A stretch of 64,000 nt of DNA from the IMG/VR virus record IMGVR_UViG_3300020685_000002. One strand, 5' to 3'. The stretch comes from a virus (taxonomy: Duplodnaviria > Heunggongvirae > Uroviricota > Caudoviricetes). Below the pieces are notes generated by a model, which had not been told where the DNA came from, did not search any database, and saw nothing but the letters and a program-made list of their open reading frames with translations. The stretch's first letter is position 1; every line of letters begins with the position of its first letter. The position numbers and the translations under genes are program-made. This document shows positions 3,862 to 61,441 of this stretch, one piece after another.

Positions 3862-5184
3862 ATGGCATTATTAAACGAAGAATTAAACCTAAAATGGGGT
3901 CCAATTTTAGAGCACCCTGAATTAACTAGCATTTCTGATCCATATAAAAAAGCAGTTACTGCTATTATTTTAGAAAATCAACAAAATGCAATGGATGCTG
4001 ATCGTCAAACTTTGAACGAAACAACAACTAACGTTGCTGGTGGTATTTCAAATTTTGATCCAATCTTAATCAGCTTAGTACGTCGTGCGCTTCCTAACTT
4101 AATTGCTTATGATATCGCTGGCGTTCAACCAATGACTGGCCCAACTGGTTTGATCTTTGCATTACGTTCACGTTACGGTTCACAATCTGGCGCCGAAGCT
4201 TTCTACAATGAAGCTAATACTATCTTCTCTGGTATTATTGGTAATACTCCAGCAGGTAATACTGGTTCTACTACTGCTTCTGCTGCTTCTGCAAATAGTG
4301 CTGTTGATTCTACTGGTCCATTAGCTTTATCTAGTTTTGATACTGGTACTGGTTTAACTACTGCTTTGGGTGAAGTTTTAGGTGCATCAAACGCTTTCCC
4401 TGAAATGGGTATCTCTATCGAGAAAGTAACTGTTTCTGCTAAAACTCGTGCATTGAAAGCTGAGTACTCTTTAGAAATGGCACAAGACTTAAAAGCAATT
4501 CATGGTCTTGACGCTGAAACTGAATTGTCTAATATTCTTTCTACTGAAATTTTATCAGAAATCAACCGTGAAGTTATCCGTACTATCTACACTGTAGCTA
4601 AAGCTGGTGCTCAATTCGGTACTGTAACTCCTGGTATATTTGATTTAGATACTGACTCAAATGGTCGTTGGTCAGTTGAGCGTTTCAAAGGTTTGATTTA
4701 TCATATCGAAAGAGAAGCTAACCAAATCGCGAAAACTACTCGTAGAGGAAAAGGTAACATCTTAATCGTTTCTTCTGATGTTGCTTCTGCTTTAGCAATG
4801 GCTGGTGTATTACAATATACTCCTGCTCTTTCTGCTGATCTACAAGTAGATGACACTGGAAATACTTTTGCTGGTTTGTTACATGGTCGTATCAAAGTTT
4901 ATATCGATCCTTATTTTGGTGGTTCTGCACAAAACGTAGAATTATGTACTGTTGGTTATAAAGGTACTTCTCCTTATGATTCAGGTTTATTCTACTGCCC
5001 ATACGTTCCTTTACAAATGGTTCGTGCAGTTGATCCTTCAACTTTCCAACCAAAAATTGGATTTAAGACTCGTTACGGTTTAGTTGCTAATCCTTTTGCT
5101 GAAGGTTTAAACCAAGGTTTAGGACAATTAAATGCTCGTGCAAACTTATATTACAGAATTTTTGCTATCAAAAACTTAATGTAA
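3862..5184 (+). CDS. 23: Major capsid protein gp23.
   Basis: The 440 aa protein sits in the syntenic position after g22. It has a strong AAGGAG ribosome-binding site and codon usage typical of a highly expressed gene. Sequence features match T4-like gp23 (LNEELNLKWGP.., GVQPMTGPTGLIFALR). Confidence 0.9.
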   Translation: MALLNEELNLKWGPILEHPELTSISDPYKKAVTAIILENQQNAMDADRQTLNETTTNVAGGISNFDPILISLVRRALPNLIAYDIAGVQPMTGPTGLIFALRSRYGSQSGAEAFYNEANTIFSGIIGNTPAGNTGSTTASAASANSAVDSTGPLALSSFDTGTGLTTALGEVLGASNAFPEMGISIEKVTVSAKTRALKAEYSLEMAQDLKAIHGLDAETELSNILSTEILSEINREVIRTIYTVAKAGAQFGTVTPGIFDLDTDSNGRWSVERFKGLIYHIEREANQIAKTTRRGKGNILIVSSDVASALAMAGVLQYTPALSADLQVDDTGNTFAGLLHGRIKVYIDPYFGGSAQNVELCTVGYKGTSPYDSGLFYCPYVPLQMVRAVDPSTFQPKIGFKTRYGLVANPFAEGLNQGLGQLNARANLYYRIFAIKNLM

Positions 5185-17782: not shown

Positions 17783-17867
17783 TCTTAGGTACTCTAATGG
17801 TAAGAGATTTGACTGTTAATCAAACGTATACAGAAATGTTATGGGGGTTCGAGTCCCTCCCTAAGAG
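17783..17867 (+). tRNA. tRNA-like gene with anticodon GTT (Asn) and an unusual 18-nt variable region, flanked by a 16-bp extended inverted repeat.
   Basis: A cloverleaf can be drawn by hand. The acceptor is TCTTAGG/CCTAAGA, the D-arm is CTCT..AGAG, the anticodon stem is TTTGA/TCAAA with loop CTGTTAA, and the T-arm is GGGGG-TTCGAGT-CCCTC. The acceptor pairing extends outward as GAGCAGTGC...GCACTGCTC. Confidence 0.5.
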
Positions 17868-17985
17868 CACTGCTCATTTAAATAAATTACAAGGTAAAAT
17901 CTTGAAAGAAAACACTTCAAAGGTCGGGAGATACACTTTGAATAGTGGTGCAGTAAAAGTCTGTGATATCTCCCCCTTGTTTTGA

Positions 17986-18058
17986 GGATGGTAGCTCAAT
18001 GGTAGAGCAGTTTGTTAGAAATAACATTTAAGCATGGGTTCGAATCCCATCGTTCCTC
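17986..18058 (+). tRNA. Degenerate tRNA-like element or possible pseudo-tRNA.
   Basis: Canonical D-arm (GCTCAATGGTAGAGC) and T-arm (ATGGG-TTCGAAT-CCCAT) are present. The acceptor stem and anticodon arm cannot be folded cleanly. Confidence 0.3.
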
Positions 18059-18069
18059 ACTTAGTTTAT

Positions 18070-18145
18070 CTCTCTGTAGTGTAGTCTGGTAACATGATGC
18101 GTTTGGGGCGCATTGTCCTTCGTTCAAATCGAAGCAGAGAGACCA
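18070..18145 (+). tRNA. tRNA-Pro (anticodon TGG) with an encoded CCA end.
   Basis: The acceptor is CTCTCTG/CAGAGAG, the anticodon stem is ATGCG/CGCAT with loop TTTGGGG, the T-arm is CTTCG-TTCAAAT-CGAAG, and the 3' end reads A-CCA. Confidence 0.75.
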
Positions 18146-18149
18146 GTTT

Positions 18150-18240
18150 GGAAGAGTGGTTGAGTGGTTTAAGACAGCAGTCTTGAAAACTGTCGAGGGT
18201 TAATACCCCTCCGTGGGTTCGAATCCCACCTCTTCCGCCA
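18150..18240 (+). tRNA. tRNA-Ser (anticodon TGA), class II with a long variable arm and an encoded CCA end.
   Basis: The acceptor is GGAAGAG/CTCTTCC, the anticodon loop is CTTGAAA, the variable arm is long, the T-arm is GTGGG-TTCGAAT-CCCAC, and the 3' end reads G-CCA. Confidence 0.75.
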
Positions 18241-18245
18241 TTTTC

Positions 18246-18323
18246 GCACCACTAGCTCAATTGGTTAGAGCTCTCCGCTCATAACGGATAGGTTCTGGGT
18301 TCAAATCCCAGGTCGGTGCACCA
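18246..18323 (+). tRNA. tRNA with anticodon CAT (Met or Ile2). The acceptor stem is imperfect.
   Basis: D-arm AGCTCAATTGGTTAGAGCT, anticodon loop CTCATAA, T-arm CTGGG-TTCAAAT-CCCAG and a 3' CCA are present. Only 5 of 7 acceptor pairs can be drawn. Confidence 0.55.
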
Positions 18324-26355: not shown

Positions 26356-27264
26356 ATGAGTTTACTTGAAAAACTTAAAAAAAATTCAACGATAAAAGAA
26401 TCATCTATTTTATCTGTATCAAAATTTTTTACTAAAAAGGATATGATAACAACTCCAATTCCTGCGTTTAATGTTGCATTATCAGGCAGATTGGATGGCG
26501 GATTAACTCCAGGACTTTCATTATTTTGTGGTCCTAGTAAACATTTTAAAAGCCTTTTTTGTTTGATTTTAGCTAAAGCATATATGGATAAATATCCAGA
26601 ATCTGTATTAGTATTTTATGATTGCGAATTTGGTACACCCGAAGCGTATTTTGATTCATTAGGTATGGATAAAGATAGAATTCTCCATACCCCAATTATG
26701 AATATGGAAGAGTTTAAATTTGATATTATTAATCACCTTCAAAATATTACTAGAGGCGACAAAGTAATATTTGTTGTTGATTCTTTAGGAAATATGGCTA
26801 GTAAAAAAGAAACTGATGATGCTATTGATGGTAAATCTGTTGCTGATATGACTCGTGCAAAATCTATGAAATCTATGTTTCGTATGATTACACCATATCT
26901 AGTTAAATATGATATTCCTATGGTAGCAGTAAATCATATCTATATGACTCAGGAAATGTTCAGTAAACCAGTCGTTAGCGGGGGTTGTGTTGTAGCAGGC
27001 ACTAAAATTCAAATGTTTGATAGATCGTTAAAATCTATTGAGGATATTACACCTGGATGTTTGGTTAAAACTCAAGATGGTCCTAAAATTGTTACACATA
27101 GTTGGAACCCAGAGACACTTTTAGATGGAAATCCAGAATGTTATAAAATTACATTTGAAGATGGTTACTCTGTAATTTGCTCTGATGAACACCCATTTCT
27201 TAAAAATTCAGAATTTGTATCGGCAAAGGAACTTAGTATTGGAGATGATATAACAACATTGTGA
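26356..27264 (+). CDS. uvsX: UvsX recombinase N-terminal fragment (N-extein 26356-26985) fused to a split-intein N-fragment (IntN 26986-27261, about 92 aa).
   Basis: The sequence aligns to T4 UvsX up to ..HIYMTQEMFSKPVVSGG. It then continues as CVVAGTKI.. with Hint blocks A and B and ends at a stop codon. Confidence 0.8.
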   Translation: MSLLEKLKKNSTIKESSILSVSKFFTKKDMITTPIPAFNVALSGRLDGGLTPGLSLFCGPSKHFKSLFCLILAKAYMDKYPESVLVFYDCEFGTPEAYFDSLGMDKDRILHTPIMNMEEFKFDIINHLQNITRGDKVIFVVDSLGNMASKKETDDAIDGKSVADMTRAKSMKSMFRMITPYLVKYDIPMVAVNHIYMTQEMFSKPVVSGGCVVAGTKIQMFDRSLKSIEDITPGCLVKTQDGPKIVTHSWNPETLLDGNPECYKITFEDGYSVICSDEHPFLKNSEFVSAKELSIGDDITTL

Positions 27265-27429
27265 AATACAAAAAGTGGAAAAAAATATATTTGATACTGT
27301 TATGGATAAAGATGTTTGGGCAACAACATCATCATTTCAAAAACGTGAAATTTGCATATATTGTGGGAAAGAAAGTGTGGTCGGTAATATTAAACGCTGG
27401 CATAATGATAATTGTAAAGAGAAAAAAAT

Positions 27430-27987
27430 ATGAAAATTGTTAATATAGAAAAAGTTGGTAAAAGAAACGTATTTGATATAACTGTTGCTGATAATCATCA
27501 ATATGTACTAGAAAATGGTGTTATCACACATAATACTGGTGTTTATCTTTCTGCTGATAATATTTACATCTTGGGCAGACAACAAGAAAAAGAAGGTACT
27601 GATGTTGTTGGGTATAATTTTATTATAAATGTTGAAAAATCAAGACATGTTCGTGAAAAATCAAAAATACCAATTACTGTAAAATATGAAGGCGGTTTAA
27701 GTTCTTGGTCAGGTTTAATTGATATGGCTCTAGAATCAGGACATGTTGTAAAACCATCTAATGGTTGGTATTCGCGAGTTAATACTGCGACAGGCGAGGT
27801 TGAAGAAAAGAAATATCGCCTTAAAGATACAGATACAAAGGACTTCTGGAATAAAATATTATTAGATAAAACTTTTCAAGATTGGATTAAATCTAATTAT
27901 CAAGTATCTCATGGAAATATTTTAGCTTCAGATAAAGATATAGAACAAACATTTGCAGAAATTGGGGATGATGATGAAGAATTATAA
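27430..27987 (+). CDS. uvsX: Split-intein C-fragment (IntC 27430-27534, 35 aa, ending ..VITHN) fused to the UvsX C-extein (from T at 27535).
   Basis: MKIVNIEKVGKRNVFDITVADNHQYVLENGVITHN carries intein blocks F and G. It is followed by TGVYLSADNIYILGRQ.., which continues the alignment to T4 UvsX (TGPMYSADTVFIIGKRQ). The gene has its own ribosome-binding site (AAAGAG) and ATG. Confidence 0.8.
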   Translation: MKIVNIEKVGKRNVFDITVADNHQYVLENGVITHNTGVYLSADNIYILGRQQEKEGTDVVGYNFIINVEKSRHVREKSKIPITVKYEGGLSSWSGLIDMALESGHVVKPSNGWYSRVNTATGEVEEKKYRLKDTDTKDFWNKILLDKTFQDWIKSNYQVSHGNILASDKDIEQTFAEIGDDDEEL

Positions 27988-54443: not shown

Positions 54444-54860
54444 ATGAGTAAAATAGATACAAAAGATTATCAAGATTTCGTAAAGAAGACAATTTCTCCT
54501 GCATCAAGTGATGTTTCATCATTTTTGACAAGATTAGACTCTTTATATGTTGATTCTATCCCACTACAAATAAAACTTCCAGAATTATTAACAGCATCTG
54601 CTGGATTATCTGCTGAATCAGGGGAATTTACTGAAGTTGTTAAGAAAATATTATTCCAAGGGAAACCATTGGACGAAGATAATATCTATCATATGAAAAG
54701 AGAATTGGGTGATATTTGTTGGTATCTTGCTGTTGCATGTACAGCACTAAATACTACACTAGAAGATATTCTTGTTATGAATGTTGAAAAGTTATCAGCT
54801 CGTTATCCTCAAGGGTTTGAGATTATTAAATCTGAAATTCGTCAAGATGGTGATATTTAA
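54444..54860 (+). CDS. mazG: MazG-like nucleoside triphosphate pyrophosphohydrolase.
   Basis: ESGEFTE...ELGDICWYLA EExxE/ExxD MazG motifs. Confidence 0.7.
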   Translation: MSKIDTKDYQDFVKKTISPASSDVSSFLTRLDSLYVDSIPLQIKLPELLTASAGLSAESGEFTEVVKKILFQGKPLDEDNIYHMKRELGDICWYLAVACTALNTTLEDILVMNVEKLSARYPQGFEIIKSEIRQDGDI

Positions 54861-54877
54861 AAATAAAATATAAAAGG

Positions 54878-55876
54878 ATGGTTATGGGAATAAGAATACT
54901 AACTCCTAAAACAATTTATACAACGGATTATCCTACTGCTATAGAATTTGCAGAAAAACAAGCTGAGGTATTTTGGCTTCCTACTGAAATTGAAGTAGAA
55001 AAAGATCTTCATGAGTTAAAAACAAATTTTACTGAAGCAGAATATCATGGTGTTATTTCAACATTAAAATTATTCACTCTTTATGAATTAAATGTTGGAA
55101 ATGATTATTGGCAAAATTATATTTCTAAAGTTTTTCCGAGACCAGATATTCAAAGAATGGCTGCAACATTTTCTTTTATGGAATTGGGTGTTCATGCACC
55201 ATTCTATAATAAAATTAATGAAGTTCTTGGTTTAGATAATGATGAGTTCTATACTGATTATTTAAATGATGAAGTTCTTGCAAATAGAATGGCTTGGATA
55301 GGTAAACGAACTGAGAAAAGAAATACTGTTTATGACGTATTAAAATCAGTTGGTATTTTCTCTATGATTGAAGGTGCAATTCTTTATTCAAGTTTTGCTT
55401 TCTTGAAACATTTCAATTCTGCAGGTAAAAATAAATTAGTAGCTATTAATGCTGGAATCAATTTCTCTGCGATTGATGAAACTTTACATTCACAAGCTGG
55501 CGGTTGGTTATTTAGAACATTATTAAAAGAAGCTAAAGAAGATGGTCAAGTAACAGATATATTTGTTGAAGAATTAATTCGAGAACTTGAAGAAACTGCT
55601 AAAGTGATATTAGAACACGAATCAATAATTATTGATAAAATATTTGAGAAAGGTCAAATTAAAGGTATTACTGAAAATCAATTGAAACGGTTTGTTGAAT
55701 CTAGATTAGATATTTGTTTAGAAAATCTTGGATATAAAGGAATTTTTAAACCAACGTATAATCCGATTAAATCTTGGTTCTATAAAGATCTAGAATCTTC
55801 TACGTTGCACGACTTTTTTTCGTCGCAAGGTTCTGATTATAATAGAAATTGGATTGAAAATAAATTTAAATGGTAA
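54878..55876 (+). CDS. nrdB: Ribonucleotide reductase small subunit (class I beta).
   Basis: Diiron ligand pattern (E..H, SFAFLKHF, ETLHSQ) and a C-terminal tail. Confidence 0.8.
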   Translation: MVMGIRILTPKTIYTTDYPTAIEFAEKQAEVFWLPTEIEVEKDLHELKTNFTEAEYHGVISTLKLFTLYELNVGNDYWQNYISKVFPRPDIQRMAATFSFMELGVHAPFYNKINEVLGLDNDEFYTDYLNDEVLANRMAWIGKRTEKRNTVYDVLKSVGIFSMIEGAILYSSFAFLKHFNSAGKNKLVAINAGINFSAIDETLHSQAGGWLFRTLLKEAKEDGQVTDIFVEELIRELEETAKVILEHESIIIDKIFEKGQIKGITENQLKRFVESRLDICLENLGYKGIFKPTYNPIKSWFYKDLESSTLHDFFSSQGSDYNRNWIENKFKW

Positions 55877-57018
55877 CTGAAATGAAAGAATTATCAATAT
55901 ACGACGAATTAGGTGAAGAAAGAAAAAAATTGCAAGGTGAAGGTAAATTACCAATGTGGTGTTCGACTATTGCATGGCAAATGCTTAAAGAAAATTATCT
56001 TTCTGAAAAATATCCTGATTTAAAATCAGTATATACACGTGTAGCTAAACATGCTGCGCAATATACTACAAATCCTGATGAATGGGAACAAAAATTCTTT
56101 GATCTATTCTGGAAAGGATATTTGGCAGCTTCAACTCCTGTATTGTCTAATATGGGAACAGGATTTGGTTGTTCTGTAAGTTGTTCAGGCGGATATATCA
56201 ATGATTCAGTTTATGATTTCTATGATGCACAAAAAGAAGCTGCAGTTCTATCAAAAAATGGTTTTGGTACATCAGGCTATCTTGGTGCAATTAGACCAAG
56301 AGGTTCTAAAATTTTTGGAATGAAAGGTAGTGCTTCTGGTGTCCTTCCAGTATTCAAAGATTTTATACAAATGTCTAGAGATATTTCTCAAGGTTCACAA
56401 AGACGAGGTGCTTGGGCTGGGTATCTTGAAATTGATCATGATGATTTTTATGAATTGGTAAATTATATCGGTAAGAATCCTGACGATGCAAATATTGGAT
56501 GGATTATCACAAAAAACTTTATTGATAGATTAGATGCTGGTGATAATGATGCAATTTCTAGATATCAAAAAGCGTTAAAGTTGAAAATGATTACTGGAAA
56601 GGGTTATTTCATTAAAATTGATGCTATTAATGAACAAAATCCACAAATGTATAAAGATAAAGGTTTATCTGTAAAAGCATCAAATTTGTGTTTAACTGGT
56701 GATACTAGAATTAATATTAAAGGTGATATTAGTGGCGAACTACAAGTATCAATGGAAGGGTTAAATAATTATTTAGGTAAAAATGATGATGTAGAAAATT
56801 GGAAGGTTTGGTCATATAACACAGAAACTAACATGAGCGAATGGAAAAAAATTATAAAATCTGCACAAACATCAATATCGACTAAGATAATGAATATTAC
56901 AGACGAAATAACTGGAAAATCTATAAAATGTACGCCAGATCATAAGATTTTTACCGAGAACCGTGGATATGTTTGTGCAAAAGATTTAATGGAAAATGAT
57001 GTATTATTATTAAAATAG
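55870..57018 (+). CDS. nrdA: Class I RNR large-subunit N-terminal fragment (no ATP cone), ending ..ASNL, fused to a split-intein N-fragment (IntN 56689-57015, about 109 aa).
   Basis: RNR alpha core motifs (GCSVSC.., SQGSQRRGAWAGYL) lead up to the active-site SNL. The sequence then continues as CLTGDTRINIKGD.. (Hint block A) to a TAG stop. Confidence 0.75.
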   Translation: MVTEMKELSIYDELGEERKKLQGEGKLPMWCSTIAWQMLKENYLSEKYPDLKSVYTRVAKHAAQYTTNPDEWEQKFFDLFWKGYLAASTPVLSNMGTGFGCSVSCSGGYINDSVYDFYDAQKEAAVLSKNGFGTSGYLGAIRPRGSKIFGMKGSASGVLPVFKDFIQMSRDISQGSQRRGAWAGYLEIDHDDFYELVNYIGKNPDDANIGWIITKNFIDRLDAGDNDAISRYQKALKLKMITGKGYFIKIDAINEQNPQMYKDKGLSVKASNLCLTGDTRINIKGDISGELQVSMEGLNNYLGKNDDVENWKVWSYNTETNMSEWKKIIKSAQTSISTKIMNITDEITGKSIKCTPDHKIFTENRGYVCAKDLMENDVLLLK

Positions 57019-57193
57019 TTTTGTGTACTGAAATATGACGAAAATATTCCTAGTTCATTTGGCGGAACTTATAGAGAAAATATTACTACTAAAAAGATTC
57101 AAAAATTACTTATAGATAAGTTTGGTGCAATTGATAAACAGTTGGGTTCATATGCTAAACACCATACAAATAAAATAAAAGAGGAAATTGAAA

Positions 57194-58189
57194 ATGAGTT
57201 TAAAAATTGAGTATTTAGAAAATGAAGAAGCGGTATATGATATATCTGTAGAAGATAACCACAATTTTTTTGCTAATGGTATATTAGTACATAATTGCAC
57301 GGAAATCACATTATTTTCTGATGAGGATCATACATTTTCTTGTGTTCTTTCATCTATGAATGCGTCTCTTTATGATGAATGGAAAGATACAGATGCTGTG
57401 TTTAATGCTACAGTATTCTTGGATTGCGTCAATCAAGATCTAATTGAAATTGGTAAAAACACTAAGGGAATGGAAAGGGTTGTTAGATTTGCTGAAAAAT
57501 CAAGAGCATTGGGATTAGGTCTTCTTGGTTTTCATACTTATCTTCAAGATCATTTAATTGCTTTTGAATCTTTAGAAGCTAATTTTAAAAATGTAGAAAT
57601 ATTTAAACATCTTGATGCAGAATCAAAACGTGCTTCTGAATGGATGGCTAAAGAATTTGGTGAACCTGAATGGTGTAAAGGGTATGGAGTAAGAAATACC
57701 CATAGAATTGCAGTGGCACCAAATCTTTCTTCTGCGTTAATCTGTGGTTCTGTGAGTCAAGGTATTGAACCTATCTATAAAAATGCTTATGTTCAAAATA
57801 CAGCAGCAGGAAAAATGGATAGGGTTAATCCTTCATTATTAACGTTGATGAAAAAAATAAATGTATATTCAGAAGAAACTGTTAAAGATATTATTTCTAA
57901 TAATGGTTCTGTTCAGCATGTAGATTGGTTAACAGATGAAGAAAAAATAGTATTTAAAACTGCTTTTGAAATTAATCAGCATAGTATAATTAGATTGGCT
58001 TCTACAAGACAAAAATATATTGACCAAGCTCAATCTATAAATCTTTTCTTCTCTGCTGATGAAGATGAAGAATATATTTCAGAAGTCCATAAAGCTGCCT
58101 TTAAAGATCCTTATATTAAATCGTTGTATTATATTAGATCTGAAACTGGGGTTAATGTTTCAAAAGAGTGTCTGAGTTGTCATGGTTGA
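57194..58189 (+). CDS. nrdA: Split-intein C-fragment (IntC 57194-57295, 34 aa, ending ..ILVHN) fused to the RNR large-subunit C-extein, which begins with the catalytic C of SNL|CTEI.
   Basis: MSLKIEYLENEEAVYDISVEDNHNFFANGILVHN carries intein blocks F and G. CTEITLF.. then restores the SNLCxEI motif. The gene has its own AAGAGGA ribosome-binding site and ATG, in a different frame from the N-fragment. Confidence 0.75.
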   Translation: MSLKIEYLENEEAVYDISVEDNHNFFANGILVHNCTEITLFSDEDHTFSCVLSSMNASLYDEWKDTDAVFNATVFLDCVNQDLIEIGKNTKGMERVVRFAEKSRALGLGLLGFHTYLQDHLIAFESLEANFKNVEIFKHLDAESKRASEWMAKEFGEPEWCKGYGVRNTHRIAVAPNLSSALICGSVSQGIEPIYKNAYVQNTAAGKMDRVNPSLLTLMKKINVYSEETVKDIISNNGSVQHVDWLTDEEKIVFKTAFEINQHSIIRLASTRQKYIDQAQSINLFFSADEDEEYISEVHKAAFKDPYIKSLYYIRSETGVNVSKECLSCHG

Positions 58190-58201
58190 TATAGAGTTAT
58201 T

Positions 58202-58459
58202 ATGAAAATTGAAATTATTAAAGAGTTTAATATTGAATTAAAAGGTTTTAAGTGTACTGTTACTTATGATGAAGCAAAATATCTTTATGATGAACTCAAT
58301 AAAGAGTTTGGGTATAATGCTGAAAAGATCTGGGAAGATACATTGCCTGAAGGTGACTATATATTCAAAACGAAAGATAGATATGATATTCAGCAAGTGC
58401 CATATGTAGATGATGTTCCAGATGGTAATTATGTTTTTTCGTGTAAAAGTAAAGGTTGA
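58202..58459 (+). CDS. Hypothetical protein.
   Basis: 85 aa ORF. Confidence 0.4.
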   Translation: MKIEIIKEFNIELKGFKCTVTYDEAKYLYDELNKEFGYNAEKIWEDTLPEGDYIFKTKDRYDIQQVPYVDDVPDGNYVFSCKSKG

Positions 58460-58638
58460 TTATGAATATATATTTTAAATGTGTGTTTTATTTTTTATTA
58501 TTTTTTGGTGTTGAGGGGTTTTTGTTGCCAAACTTATTCTCTTCAGAATCAGATTATGGTGTGTTACTTGGGTTAATGATCGCTGTATTGTTTATCCCAA
58601 TTTCTTTTTGGTATATTAAGTGGAGTTTTAAAAAGTGA
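58456..58638 (+). CDS. Small membrane protein (2 TM).
   Basis: Two hydrophobic helices. It is translationally coupled to its neighbours. Confidence 0.35.
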   Translation: MIMNIYFKCVFYFLLFFGVEGFLLPNLFSSESDYGVLLGLMIAVLFIPISFWYIKWSFKK

Positions 58639-59492
58639 AACAAATTATAATATTATGTTTAGCGTTATTTCTTGTTGCGTGTTCTGATGTTCCTAATGGC
58701 TATGTTGGAATTAAAATAAACAAATTGGGTTCTGATAAAGGTATTGAAAATCAAACCCTTCCTGTTGGTAGGTATTGGTTAACACCTAATGAACAACTGT
58801 TTATTTTTCCAATGTTTACTCAAACACATGTCTGGACTCAAAATGTAACTGAAGGATCTCCTACAGATGAAAGTTTTTCTTTTCAAACTATTGAAGGGAT
58901 GACTGTTAATACAGATATTGGTATAACATATTCTCTGGACCCAAATAAAGTTTCTATTGTCTTCCAAAAATATCGTAAAGGTATTGATGAAATTACTAGC
59001 TCTGTTCTGAGATCTATGGTTAGAGATTCTCTAATTAATGCTGCTTCAACAAAACCTATTGAAACTGTTTATGGATCGGGTAAAGCTTCTCTTATCAAAG
59101 AAGTTGAAGATTCTGTTAAAATTCAATGTGTTGAAATTGGGATAAATATTGAACATGTATACTGGGTTGGTGGATTAAGATTGCCTGAATCAATTATTTC
59201 TTCTATTAATGCAAAAGCAGCTGCCTCTCAGATGACTGCTCAGAGGGAACAAGAAATCCAACAATCTAAAGCGGAAGCTGATAAGAAAATCCAAGAAGCT
59301 AGAGGTGATGCGGAATCAACTCTTCTGAGAGCAAATGCTGAAGCTCAAGCAATTTTAATTAAAGGTAAAGCTATTTCTGATAATCCTCAGATTATTGAAT
59401 TGTCAAAAATTGAAAAATGGAATGGAATTTTACCACAAATCACTGGTAATGCAGGCACTTTAGTCCAGCTAAGTCCAGTTCAGGTCAAATAA
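58635..59492 (+). CDS. SPFH/band-7 (stomatin/prohibitin/HflK-like) lipoprotein.
   Basis: Signal peptide with a lipobox (LFLVAC|S). The SPFH domain pattern is followed by a coiled-coil region AQREQEIQQSKAEADKKIQEARGDAE. Confidence 0.55.
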   Translation: MKQIIILCLALFLVACSDVPNGYVGIKINKLGSDKGIENQTLPVGRYWLTPNEQLFIFPMFTQTHVWTQNVTEGSPTDESFSFQTIEGMTVNTDIGITYSLDPNKVSIVFQKYRKGIDEITSSVLRSMVRDSLINAASTKPIETVYGSGKASLIKEVEDSVKIQCVEIGINIEHVYWVGGLRLPESIISSINAKAAASQMTAQREQEIQQSKAEADKKIQEARGDAESTLLRANAEAQAILIKGKAISDNPQIIELSKIEKWNGILPQITGNAGTLVQLSPVQVK

Positions 59493-59925: not shown

Positions 59926-60369
59926 ATGGAAAATCTAATCCAACCCTCCTGGATCTACCAATCTCTTCCTCTTCTATCTCCTCCTGAAAATGCTATTGCC
60001 TTTGTCTATCTTATCTATAATCCCTCTACTAATAAATCCTATATCGGGAAAAAACAATTCTTCTCGAAAAAAATCTCGCAAAAATCTATTACTCAAATTG
60101 ATGGCTCTAAAATTGTAAAAAAGAAAAAATTGACTGTGGAATCTGATTGGAAATCCTATAATGGCTCTAACTCTTCTCTTATTGAACATGCTAAAATACA
60201 TCTTCTTGAAAAAACAATTCTCCATATCTGCTACTCAAAATCTCATGCTTCCTATCTGGAACTGAAAGAACAAATGTCTAGGGATGTTATTCTCTCTTCT
60301 CTCTACTATAATGACTGGGTCTCTGCTAAAATTACTAGGAAACATCTGCAAAAATTTCAAAAATTCTGA
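59926..60369 (+). CDS. GIY-YIG family endonuclease (seg-like homing endonuclease).
   Basis: The GIY-YIG core VYLIYNPSTNKSYIGKK is present. The gene sits in a CT-rich compositional island. Confidence 0.6.
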   Translation: MENLIQPSWIYQSLPLLSPPENAIAFVYLIYNPSTNKSYIGKKQFFSKKISQKSITQIDGSKIVKKKKLTVESDWKSYNGSNSSLIEHAKIHLLEKTILHICYSKSHASYLELKEQMSRDVILSSLYYNDWVSAKITRKHLQKFQKF

Positions 60370-60442: not shown

Positions 60443-60912
60443 TGGTGTCTTTGTATGATCTGAATCTTTGAATCTTTGTTCGAATCTTTGAATCTTTGTT
60501 CGAATCTTCGAATCTTTGAATCTTTGTTTGAATCTTTGTTCGAATCTTTGAATCTTTGTTCGAATCTTCGAATCTTTGTTCGAATCTTTGAATCTTTGAA
60601 TCTTTGAATCTTTGTTCGAATCTTTGTTCGAATCTTTGAATCTTTGTTCGAATCTTTGTTCGAATCTTTGAATCTTTGTTCGAATCTTTGTTCGAATCTT
60701 TGTTCGAATCTTCGAATCTTCGAATCTTCGAATCTTTGAATCTTTGTTCGAATCTTTGTTCGAATCTTTGAATCTTTGTTCGAATCTTTGAATCTTTGAA
60801 TCTTTGTTCGAATCTTTGAATCTTTGAATCTTTGTTCGAATCTTTGAATCTTTGAATCTTTGTTCGAATCTTTGAATCTTTGTTCGAATCTTTGTTCGAA
60901 TCTTTGTTCGAG
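60443..60912. repeat. Tandem repeat array of about 470 bp built from 8-mer GAATCTT(T/C) units with frequent GTTC insertions giving 12-mers.
   Basis: GAATCTTTGTTCGAATCTTTGAATCTTT.. is repeated about 45 times. All frames contain stops, so the array is non-coding. Confidence 0.9.
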
Positions 60913-60957: not shown

Positions 60958-61200
60958 AACTATTTACAGTTATTTACAGTTATTTACAGTTAATTACAGT
61001 TAATTACAGTTATTTACAGTTAATTACAGTTAATTACAGTTAATTACAGTTAATTGCAGTTAGATCCAGCTATTTACAGTTAATTGCAGTTAGACCCAGC
61101 TATTTACAGTTAATTACAGTTAGATCCAGCTAATTACAGATATTTACAGCTAATTACAGTTAATTACAGTTAGATCCAGATATTTACAGATAGATTCAGA
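60958..61200. repeat. Tandem 10-bp repeat array (T(A/T)ATTACAGT, about 22 copies, with TAGATCCAGC variants).
   Basis: The 10-bp period matches helical phasing. The array is non-coding. Confidence 0.85.
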
Positions 61201-61441
61201 TAAATACGATGTTATCTTTCTCTAATATATAAAGAGTAATTGGTATTTATTCAGGTTAAATCAAGAAAAGAACAATTGCGGGACAATTTCCGTTAAAAGA
61301 TATTAGAATACTAGATATAGTGTTTGTGCACTAGATATAGTATTTTATTTTAGGCAATACTATATGTAGTAGTAGACCCTTAGGGGTAGATACTAGATGT
61401 AGTAGTAATTTATAAAAACATTCAGAAAAAGGTGAAAAATT

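Follow-up and report, generated by a model that had tools for sequence, protein, structure and literature searches.

The tail of a deleted homing endonuclease gene very probably separates the halves of a split NrdA intein in an uncultured phage

Introduction

In an uncultured tailed phage (Duplodnaviria; Heunggongvirae; Uroviricota; Caudoviricetes; IMG/VR virus record IMGVR_UViG_3300020685_000002), nrdA, the gene for the large (alpha) subunit of class I ribonucleotide reductase (RNR), is encoded in two pieces, each fused to one half of an intein. This arrangement raises the question of how the gene came to be broken and what the short stretch of DNA between its pieces represents. The DNA analyzed here, henceforth termed the window, comprises 64,000 nt of this record at about 30% GC and contains T4-type replication genes. 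The nearest isolates, as judged by DNA polymerase, are cyanomyophages at only 46% amino acid identity, and relatives come from uncultured, partly freshwater assemblies. A first-pass annotation, read from the letters alone, had noticed that the reading frame of the upstream piece stays open beyond its stop codon, and had suggested that a contiguous intein, or one carrying an endonuclease, was recently split by a nonsense mutation and a frameshift.

Split inteins in RNR genes have a history. Seven NrdA loci of the fractured type (NrdA-1 to NrdA-7), each with a free-standing homing endonuclease gene between the intein halves, were found in ocean metagenomes by Dassa et al. (2009; PMC2677866), who reported that the insertion site is also the commonest site of contiguous RNR inteins. 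The sequence of NrdA-2 and its junction, SNL/CNE (the slash marks the insertion site), are available from the supplement of Pinto et al. (2020; PMC7090010), which gives a cis splicing efficiency of ~75-98% and in vitro assays of the split halves. Here, we compare the window locus with these published loci and with related loci from metagenomic assemblies. Judged by homology, the locus carries a natural split intein that belongs to the NrdA-2 fractured-gene family and is inserted between the Leu and the catalytic Cys of SNL/CxEI. The locus is an endonuclease-loss derivative rather than a full fractured gene, because no intact free-standing endonuclease gene lies between its halves. The explanation as a whole, i.e., a split intein of this family from which the endonuclease gene was deleted and its tail left behind, appears to us very probable.

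Results

The product of the upstream nrdA gene (N-gene) runs from ..ASNL directly into an N-terminal intein half (IntN) that ends at a TAG stop codon. The downstream gene (C-gene) lies in another frame, has its own AAGAGGA ribosome-binding site (RBS) and ATG, and begins with a 34-residue C-terminal half (IntC) followed by CTEI (Table 1); direct reading thus agrees with the first-pass annotation on both genes. IntN matched the NCBIfam model TIGR01445 (intein_Nterm) at 31.6 bits (cutoff 24.5) and Pfam Intein_splicing at 36.3 bits, while IntC matched TIGR01443 (intein_Cterm) at 43.1 bits (cutoff 15.6). The pair carries the marks of a class 1 intein, with Cys1 placed after ..ASNL, T82-P-D-H85 in block B (CTPDHKIF), and ..GILVHN/CTEI with a Cys at position +1. 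Residues C1, T82, H85, D125, H142 and N143 are invariant in an alignment of 10 family members. Taken together, IntN and IntC (143 residues) align end to end with the contiguous mini-intein of a related locus, L002, which adds just a linker of 5-6 residues at the split; by this alignment, no intein segment is missing from the window's halves. The fused halves align over their whole length with the NrdJ-1 split intein as well, their best match among proteins of solved structure (E 7e-17).

Each intein half is fused to one extein, and the exteins restore the host protein without gap or overlap. In the TIGR02510 profile (NrdE-prime, class I alpha), the N-extein occupies positions 3-261 and the C-extein positions 259-555, an exact abutment, at 230.5 and 376.6 bits, the rough sum of 607 lying above the cutoff of 602. 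Pfam assigns Ribonuc_red_lgN, Ribonuc_red_lgC and Intein_splicing to the N half, and Intein_splicing and Ribonuc_red_lgC to the C half. The N-extein shares 74-86% identity with homologues that lack the intein and in which the codon for the C-extein Cys follows directly. The C-extein is uninterrupted, and SNLCTEI (across the junction), the Cys of FSCVL, LYYIRS and a C-terminal CLSC can be read in the sequence; we take these to correspond to N437/C439/E441, C462, Y730/Y731 and the C-terminal Cys pair of the E. coli enzyme. Full-length coverage of the class I alpha profile and an adjoining beta subunit gene identify the host protein as class I RNR alpha. With intein profiles on both halves and abutting exteins, the initial placement of a split intein at the catalytic Cys of this protein stands.

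The locus shares its architecture with NrdA-2. IntN is 42% and IntC 65% identical to the NrdA-2 halves, their termini fall in the same alignment columns, i.e., the split point is shared, and in both cases the insertion site is directly N-terminal to the RNR thiyl-radical Cys (SNL/CTEI in the window). The stop after ..LLLK and the M-x-(L/I)-K-I start occupy the same columns in NrdA-2 and in every split relative examined. The comparison with the fractured-gene RNR split inteins of the Global Ocean Sampling (GOS) data that had been proposed at the outset therefore yields homology to NrdA-2 at the same site and split point.

IntN and IntC are separated by a spacer of 175 nt. Frame 1, which IntN uses, is open for 63 codons past the TAG (57019..57207, TAA 57208), rather than the 56 first counted, and overlaps the start of the C-gene by 14 nt; an open stretch of 63 codons is unlikely to occur by chance at 30% GC. 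In a HMMER search of 1.8 billion representative proteins, the 63-residue peptide corresponded to residues 227-289, the C-terminus, of the 289-residue HNH protein P0001 (..YVEEHHIIPKALGG..), with 89% identity and an E value of 4e-29. The gene for P0001 lies in a related locus, L093, between the end of IntN and the start of IntC, both of which are 94-96% identical to those of the window. A second endonuclease-bearing allele, L099, encodes an endonuclease of 314 residues. At the nucleotide level, the spacer consists of a 5' leader stub of the endonuclease cassette, followed by a remnant that is identical at 152/159 nt to L093 and likewise to L099. The peptide also resembles the last 49 residues of the L056 endonuclease (37.5% identity, score 77), a score reached by 0/2000 shuffles (27.4 +/- 4.4). 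The motif TGTAGTGAAAT is kept after the IntN stop in L051, L058 and L001. Together, these homologies argue with high probability that the spacer is what is left of a free-standing HNH endonuclease gene once located between the halves.

Two other sources for the spacer were considered and rejected, namely the tail of the L001 endonuclease (BLASTP E 0.8; score reached by 523/2000 shuffles) and the in-frame HNH domain of the L007 intein (score reached by 337/2000 shuffles). P0004 (68 residues), a candidate remnant open reading frame (ORF), was rejected as a full-length endonuclease cut by the contig end. A tblastn search of 50,697 phage records with the 63-residue peptide gave no match even at E = 10, and a pattern scan of IMG/VR with the same peptide gave none.

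In L093 and L099, the endonuclease is a separate gene with its own GTG/ATG start and RBS. Its start is preceded by a 12-bp hairpin (CTCCTTTTGT..ACAAAAGGAG, -15.1 kcal/mol, z -3.4) whose loop contains TATAAATA and whose 3' stem arm contains the endonuclease RBS. A hairpin of this type upstream of the endonuclease agrees with the control element in the account of Dassa et al. (2009; PMC2677866), where Gibb and Edgell are cited for such control of mobE in phage Aeh1 as well. The remnant in the window has no nuclease domain, HNH motif, hairpin or start codon, with no ATG, GTG or TTG until codon 42, and TATAAATA was not found in the window spacer. Without the hairpin, the spacer shows no significant structure, and the initiation region of the C-gene is predicted to be unstructured. 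The remnant is probably untranslated. The early suggestion of an intein carrying an endonuclease comes near the mark, but the endonuclease was encoded by a gene apart, with a start codon and regulatory hairpin of its own, and was not a domain of the intein.

Base-by-base comparison with the endonuclease-bearing alleles locates the junction. L093 and L099 read ..AAAATAG TTTTGTGTACTGAAAT/CTCCTTTTG.. on the 5' side and ..TTATATTGTAAACTAAAAT/ATGACGAAAAT.. inside the endonuclease gene (slashes here mark breakpoints). The window reads ..AAAATAG TTTTGTGTACTGAAAT/ATGACGAAAAT.., with its junction in AAAT at 57031-57034, within an imperfect direct repeat (TGTGTACTGAAAT and TGTAAACTAAAAT, alike at 10/13 positions), and is shorter by 732 nt than L093 and by 807 nt than L099. 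Read from these alignments, an internal deletion of 732/807 nt removed the hairpin, the TATAAATA late promoter, the RBS, the start codon and ~230-255 codons of the endonuclease gene, the nuclease domain included. A deletion between the short imperfect repeats would have left the 16-nt leader stub and an endonuclease tail of ~58 codons. The RBS and start codon of the C-gene lie inside this surviving tail, and the RBS is identical in L093, L099 and L100. That remnant and IntN share a frame is an accident: the remnant is in frame because the L093 endonuclease ORF shares the IntN frame and the deletion is a multiple of 3, and the equivalent remnant in another relative, L103, is out of frame. Amber readthrough, which the first-pass annotation had raised for the in-frame stretch, could not rejoin the halves, as frame 1 ends at its TAA and IntC lies in another frame. 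The reverse order of events, with the window state ancestral and the endonuclease inserted later, was rejected since the tail is the integral, homologous C-terminus of full-length endonucleases (P0001, P0005, L056), and it is integral to such endonucleases in several diverged lineages.

To place the locus among its relatives, we scanned IMG/VR with the N-gene and obtained 50 loci with exteins 62-86% identical, 48 of which span the junction. In 41/48, nrdA is uninterrupted, with ..SNL followed by C.. in one frame; six carry an intein at SNL/C, and one (L028) is unresolved. L002-4 contain a contiguous mini-intein, L007 a contiguous intein with an in-frame HNH domain, and L001 split halves separated by a free-standing endonuclease ORF. 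The split form is common in this clade, because 24 of the best 120 homologue clusters are N-halves of 372-386 residues, the length of a product ending at the split. A scan with IntN by itself returned loci with closer inteins (L051-54; IntN 75%, IntC 81% identical) and more distant ones (L056-62, L064), and in these an insert of 740-990 nt between the halves encodes an HNH-type or GIY-YIG-type endonuclease.

Four lineages besides the window lost the endonuclease independently, with other junctions. L100-102 (24 contigs), of the L099 cassette type, have a spacer of 73 nt and a junction TAGTTT/GGTG with the microhomology AGTTT. L103 (GenBank LR796208.1, uncultured Caudovirales phage) retains the tail of an L051/L104-type endonuclease in a spacer of 225 nt. 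In L094-96 (12 contigs), the tail of an L098-type endonuclease persists as a remnant ORF of 65 residues with its own ATG, and in L005 the split halves lie 16 nt apart, with a GTG start.

Further observations concern the relatives themselves. Pfam HNH scored at or just below threshold for the endonucleases of L051, L058 and L099, and GIY-YIG was clear for L060 in the same slot; the types of L056, L093 and L098 (HNH group) and of L062 and L064 (GIY-YIG group) were assigned from motifs by eye. By eye only, a C-terminal region with ..SG(I/L)(T/S)(N/D)E.. and ..(I/L)P(K/S)S(F/L)..YR.. appears common to the two groups, a pattern suggestive of a catalytic module swapped on a common targeting module. 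In L094 (~4270..4285), IntC ends in ..DILVSN/C, not ..VHN/C, the penultimate His of block G being replaced by Ser. L093 (1009..3920), and also L002-L005, hold a second split element in the nrdA C-extein at about residue 144; nrdA of L093 is in three pieces, the second and third separated by a 425-residue ORF that belongs to no known family, and an intein C-terminal match immediately precedes the point where the extein resumes. The nrdB product of L103 (688..2355) is 555 residues long, vs ~330, and probably carries an insertion, either an intein or another element.

The intein and the endonuclease tail are far better conserved than the surrounding genes. Between the window and L099 / L100, nucleotide identity is 96% in IntN, 96-97% in the endonuclease remnant and 96% in IntC, vs 74-79% in the N-extein, 76% in the C-extein and 72-76% in nrdB. 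Measured in 60-nt windows, identity rises from ~70% to 97-100% exactly at the first IntN codon and declines from 98% to 77% within the first ~150 nt of the C-extein. This pattern suggests recent copying of the cassette, intein and endonuclease together, into divergent nrdA alleles, accompanied by a short tract of co-conversion.

Several points weigh against the explanation favored here, a split intein that lost its endonuclease. Trans-splicing by the window pair is deduced from homology to the active NrdA-2, and a single-sequence AlphaFold2 model of fused IntN and IntC was unusable, with a predicted local distance difference test (pLDDT) score of 35. The direction of the event, deletion and not insertion, was assigned by parsimony. 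Codon differences from L099 number 13 synonymous and 4 non-synonymous in the intein halves, and 2 and 5, respectively, in the remnant; these counts, which underlie the case for relaxed constraint on the remnant, are small (Fisher p = 0.06), and suggest, but do not prove, a maintained intein and a drifting remnant. No second RNR was found within the 64-kb window, which is only part of the genome, so that one may be encoded elsewhere. Finally, 3/5 endonuclease-less lineages (window, L103, L094) have retained an endonuclease tail of ~58-66 codons, which in L094-96 forms the ORF that starts at its own ATG and is present on 12 contigs.

This last point bears on the possibility that the kept tail is functional, as a small DNA-binding protein, as a readthrough extension or by providing IntC expression signals beyond the RBS. 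The retained C-terminal region of the endonuclease is presumably DNA-binding, and the endonuclease remnant between the halves of a second split intein in the same phage (UvsX, see below) is of similar length, at 56 codons. A tail domesticated on its own or through readthrough of the IntN stop might occupy the endonuclease target and guard the locus from related endonucleases in co-infection, an idea to which we give little weight. Functional retention in any of these forms seems very unlikely to us, as the window tail offers no start codon before codon 42, 5/7 remnant substitutions are non-synonymous, no promoter-like signal in the spacer rises above chance, and other lineages do well with spacers of 73 nt or 16 nt. 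No suppressor occurs among the window's five tRNAs (Asn, Ser, Pro, Ser, Met), and an amber-suppressor tRNA was rejected on these grounds.

It is very unlikely that the split nrdA is a decaying pseudogene whose halves no longer splice, with the phage relying on a host or other RNR. Loss of the endonuclease does show an element in degeneration, just 64 kb of the genome are visible, and some multiply inserted phage nrdA genes are thought to be decaying (PMC3653736). All splicing and RNR catalytic residues are intact, as are both ORFs, and the C-gene has a good RBS in a region predicted to be unstructured. Changes in the intein halves are mostly synonymous, the neighboring nrdB, thyX and mazG genes are intact, and the window holds no other RNR.

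The initial proposal of a contiguous intein, possibly with an in-frame endonuclease domain, that was recently split by the TAG at 57016 and a frameshift in the spacer is highly improbable. It would account for the long open frame past the TAG, which is unlikely by chance, and contiguous inteins do occupy the same site in relatives (the mini-intein of L002-4, the in-frame HNH intein of L007). The stop and restart are common to NrdA-2 and all split relatives, and 24 of the homologue clusters are of N-half length. What stays open is the tail of a distinct endonuclease gene, which in L093 and L099 has its own start, RBS and hairpin, and the frame of this tail is explained by the shared frame of the L093 gene and a multiple-of-3 deletion, with the out-of-frame remnant of L103 as counterpart. 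Moreover, the intein halves are complete without the spacer, which encodes no missing intein middle.

A sequencing or assembly error in a truly continuous intein-containing nrdA, for which nothing specific speaks beyond the generic concern attached to a single metagenomic or draft sequence, can practically be dismissed: the stop at 57016-57018 and the spacer tail, where the first-pass annotation had wanted the sequence checked, as well as the RBS and the ATG, recur, 96-97% identical, in assemblies obtained independently from different samples (L093, L099, L100-102), and a single-base error cannot yield a 175-nt non-intein spacer.

Elsewhere in the window, the second split intein that had been reported for this phage is indeed present, in a UvsX-like recombinase gene (Table 1). 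Its spacer of 165 nt corresponds to the last 56 codons of the intact endonuclease of a related locus, L108, at 98% amino acid identity, and is 754 nt shorter than in L108, with the junction in the repeat GTGAAAT. The L108 endonuclease matches Pfam NUMOD3 (32 bits); its GIY-YIG-like N-terminus was recognized by eye and is not a profile match. A word-indexed protein search with the UvsX spacer peptide returned no candidates, and the identification came from related IMG/VR loci. Dassa et al. (2009; PMC2677866) do not include UvsX in their list of host proteins. The presence of two split inteins in one phage, which had been called notable, is thus upheld, but the NrdA arrangement itself is not rare, with seven loci reported (PMC2677866).

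The nrdB gene lies directly upstream of nrdA, the nrdB stop overlapping the start of the N-gene in ATGGTAA, and is itself preceded by thyX and mazG. In a scan of positions 54700-58700, no terminator was found between nrdB, the N-gene and the C-gene, and promoter-like signals occurred at chance level; co-transcription of nrdB and nrdA is likely. A SegE-like GIY-YIG protein is encoded 1.7 kb downstream of nrdA and is followed by two tandem-repeat arrays.

Table 1. Coordinates of features in the window (position 1 is the first nucleotide of the 64,000-nt stretch).
Feature	Coordinates	Strand	Description and evidence
tRNA cluster	17783..18323		Five tRNAs: Asn-GTT, Ser-AGA, Pro-TGG, Ser-TGA, Met-CAT
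UvsX/RecA-like recombinase halves	26356..27264 + 27430..27987		Second split intein, unrelated to that of nrdA
UvsX IntN	from 26986		..VVSGG/CVVAGTK
UvsX spacer	27265..27429		Endonuclease remnant
UvsX IntC	27430..27534		..GVITHN/TGVY
nrdB	54878..55876	+	Class I RNR small subunit, 332 aa; Pfam Ribonuc_red_sm 149 bits; NCBIfam RNR beta models
nrdA N-gene	55870..57018	+	382 aa; 273-aa N-extein + 109-aa IntN; TAG 57016-57018
nrdA N-extein	55870..56688	+	273 aa, C-terminal end ..KASNL; Pfam Ribonuc_red_lgN + Ribonuc_red_lgC
IntN	56689..57018	+	109 aa and TAG; CLTGDTRINIKGD.. to ..NDVLLLK (CLTGDT..VLLLK); block A Cys1, block B TPDH
Leader stub of endonuclease cassette	57019..57034	+	TTTTGTGTACTGAAAT (16 nt); 16/16 identical to L093 and L099
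Probable 3' remnant of free-standing HNH homing endonuclease gene	57035..57210	+	Last ~58 codons + TAA 57208-57210; homology
C-gene RBS	57179-57185	+	AAGAGGA, 8 nt before ATG; direct reading; inside endonuclease remnant
nrdA C-gene	57194..58189	+	ATG 57194, frame other than that of N-gene; 34-aa IntC + 297-aa C-extein
IntC	57194..57295	+	34 aa, MSLKIEYLENEEAVYDISVEDNHNFFANGILVHN (MSLKIEY..GILVHN); block F Asp, block G His-Asn
nrdA C-extein	57296..58189	+	297 aa + stop; first residue is the catalytic Cys (CTEI..), start CTEITLFSDEDHTFSCVLSS
SegE-like GIY-YIG protein	59926..60369		147 aa; Pfam 87 bits
Tandem-repeat array	60461..60911		GAATCTTTG(TTC), periods 8, 12, 20, 88; after SegE-like gene
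Second dense tandem-repeat array	60961..61207		10-nt unit TTACAGTTAA or TACAGATAGA

Discussion

The individual steps of trans-splicing are established for class 1 inteins. Applied by homology to the window locus, the two halves would be translated separately, probably from one nrdB-nrdA transcript, whereupon IntN and IntC would associate, fold into one HINT domain and trans-splice. Cys1 would undergo an N-S acyl shift, the +1 Cys, identical with the catalytic Cys of the RNR, would attack the thioester as the trans-esterification nucleophile, and cyclization of Asn143 and an S-N shift would yield the peptide bond of ..SNL-CTEI... The expected product is an NrdA of ~570 residues, partner of the adjacent NrdB. 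Because the +1 nucleophile is the RNR catalytic Cys, no active enzyme would form without splicing.

Among known systems, the published NrdA-1 to NrdA-7 loci, and NrdA-2 in particular, resemble the window most directly in phage setting, class I RNR alpha host, SNL/C site, split point and homologous halves. L093 and L099 show the full published layout, including the hairpin with TATAAATA and an endonuclease 3' end that overlaps the IntC gene. The window differs in having no endonuclease gene, of which just the 16-nt stub and the ~58-codon tail are left. The endonuclease type also differs, being HNH here, whereas Dassa et al. (PMC2677866) reported GIY-YIG and 'Vsr-like' enzymes; GIY-YIG types do occur in the same slot in L060, L062 and L064. 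The window locus represents the endonuclease-loss stage, step III, of the model of Dassa et al. (2009), a stage seen there once, in gp41-7. Both gp41-7 and the window have adjacent split-intein halves without an endonuclease gene between them, yet gp41-7 sits in the gp41 helicase and has kept the hairpin, whereas the NrdA locus of the window has lost the hairpin and kept a coding tail. In addition, near-identical endonuclease-bearing alleles of the window locus permit a base-level reading of the junction.

Two further systems help to delimit the locus. The T4-like nrdA of Aeromonas phage Aeh1 (Friedrich et al. 2007; Crona et al. 2010, PMC3045599) is likewise broken into two genes by a free-standing HNH endonuclease gene, mobE, whose control by a hairpin and a late promoter is of the type seen in L093 and L099. 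However, Aeh1 has no intein, its NrdA fragments assemble non-covalently and the break point is another one, whereas the window halves are expected to be ligated through the split intein. The cyanobacterial Ssp and Npu DnaE inteins are, like the window pair, class 1 split inteins with an IntN of ~100 residues, an IntC of ~35 residues, Cys1, a Cys at +1 and no associated endonuclease. They differ in that their halves are encoded at distant cellular loci, while those of the window are adjacent in one operon, 175 nt apart, with endonuclease debris between them; in sequence they are only distantly related (E about 1e-3 to 1e-2).

The locus as such is no surprise, since split inteins at this RNR site have been known since 2009 and NrdA-2 is already a tool in protein engineering. 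The window pair adds a further natural split intein with Cys1 and Cys +1, which, at 42% and 65% identity to the NrdA-2 halves, may serve as an orthogonal candidate. We found no paper on endonuclease remnants between split-intein halves, within an incomplete coverage of the literature. Beyond the anatomy and homology of the locus, the comparisons yielded a deletion junction, recurrent endonuclease loss, and a cassette conserved far above its exteins.

These data bear on a proposed cycle in which a contiguous intein is invaded by a free-standing endonuclease to give a fractured gene, and subsequent endonuclease loss leaves a bare split intein. The added value of the window lies in a before-and-after record of the loss step, with 96%-identical alleles and readable junctions and microhomologies. 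Loss of this kind recurs across several lineages and, within a single phage, in two genes. At the same time, the 96% identity of the cassette, compared with ~75% for the exteins, provides direct evidence for a cassette that moves as a unit between diverged phage nrdA genes.

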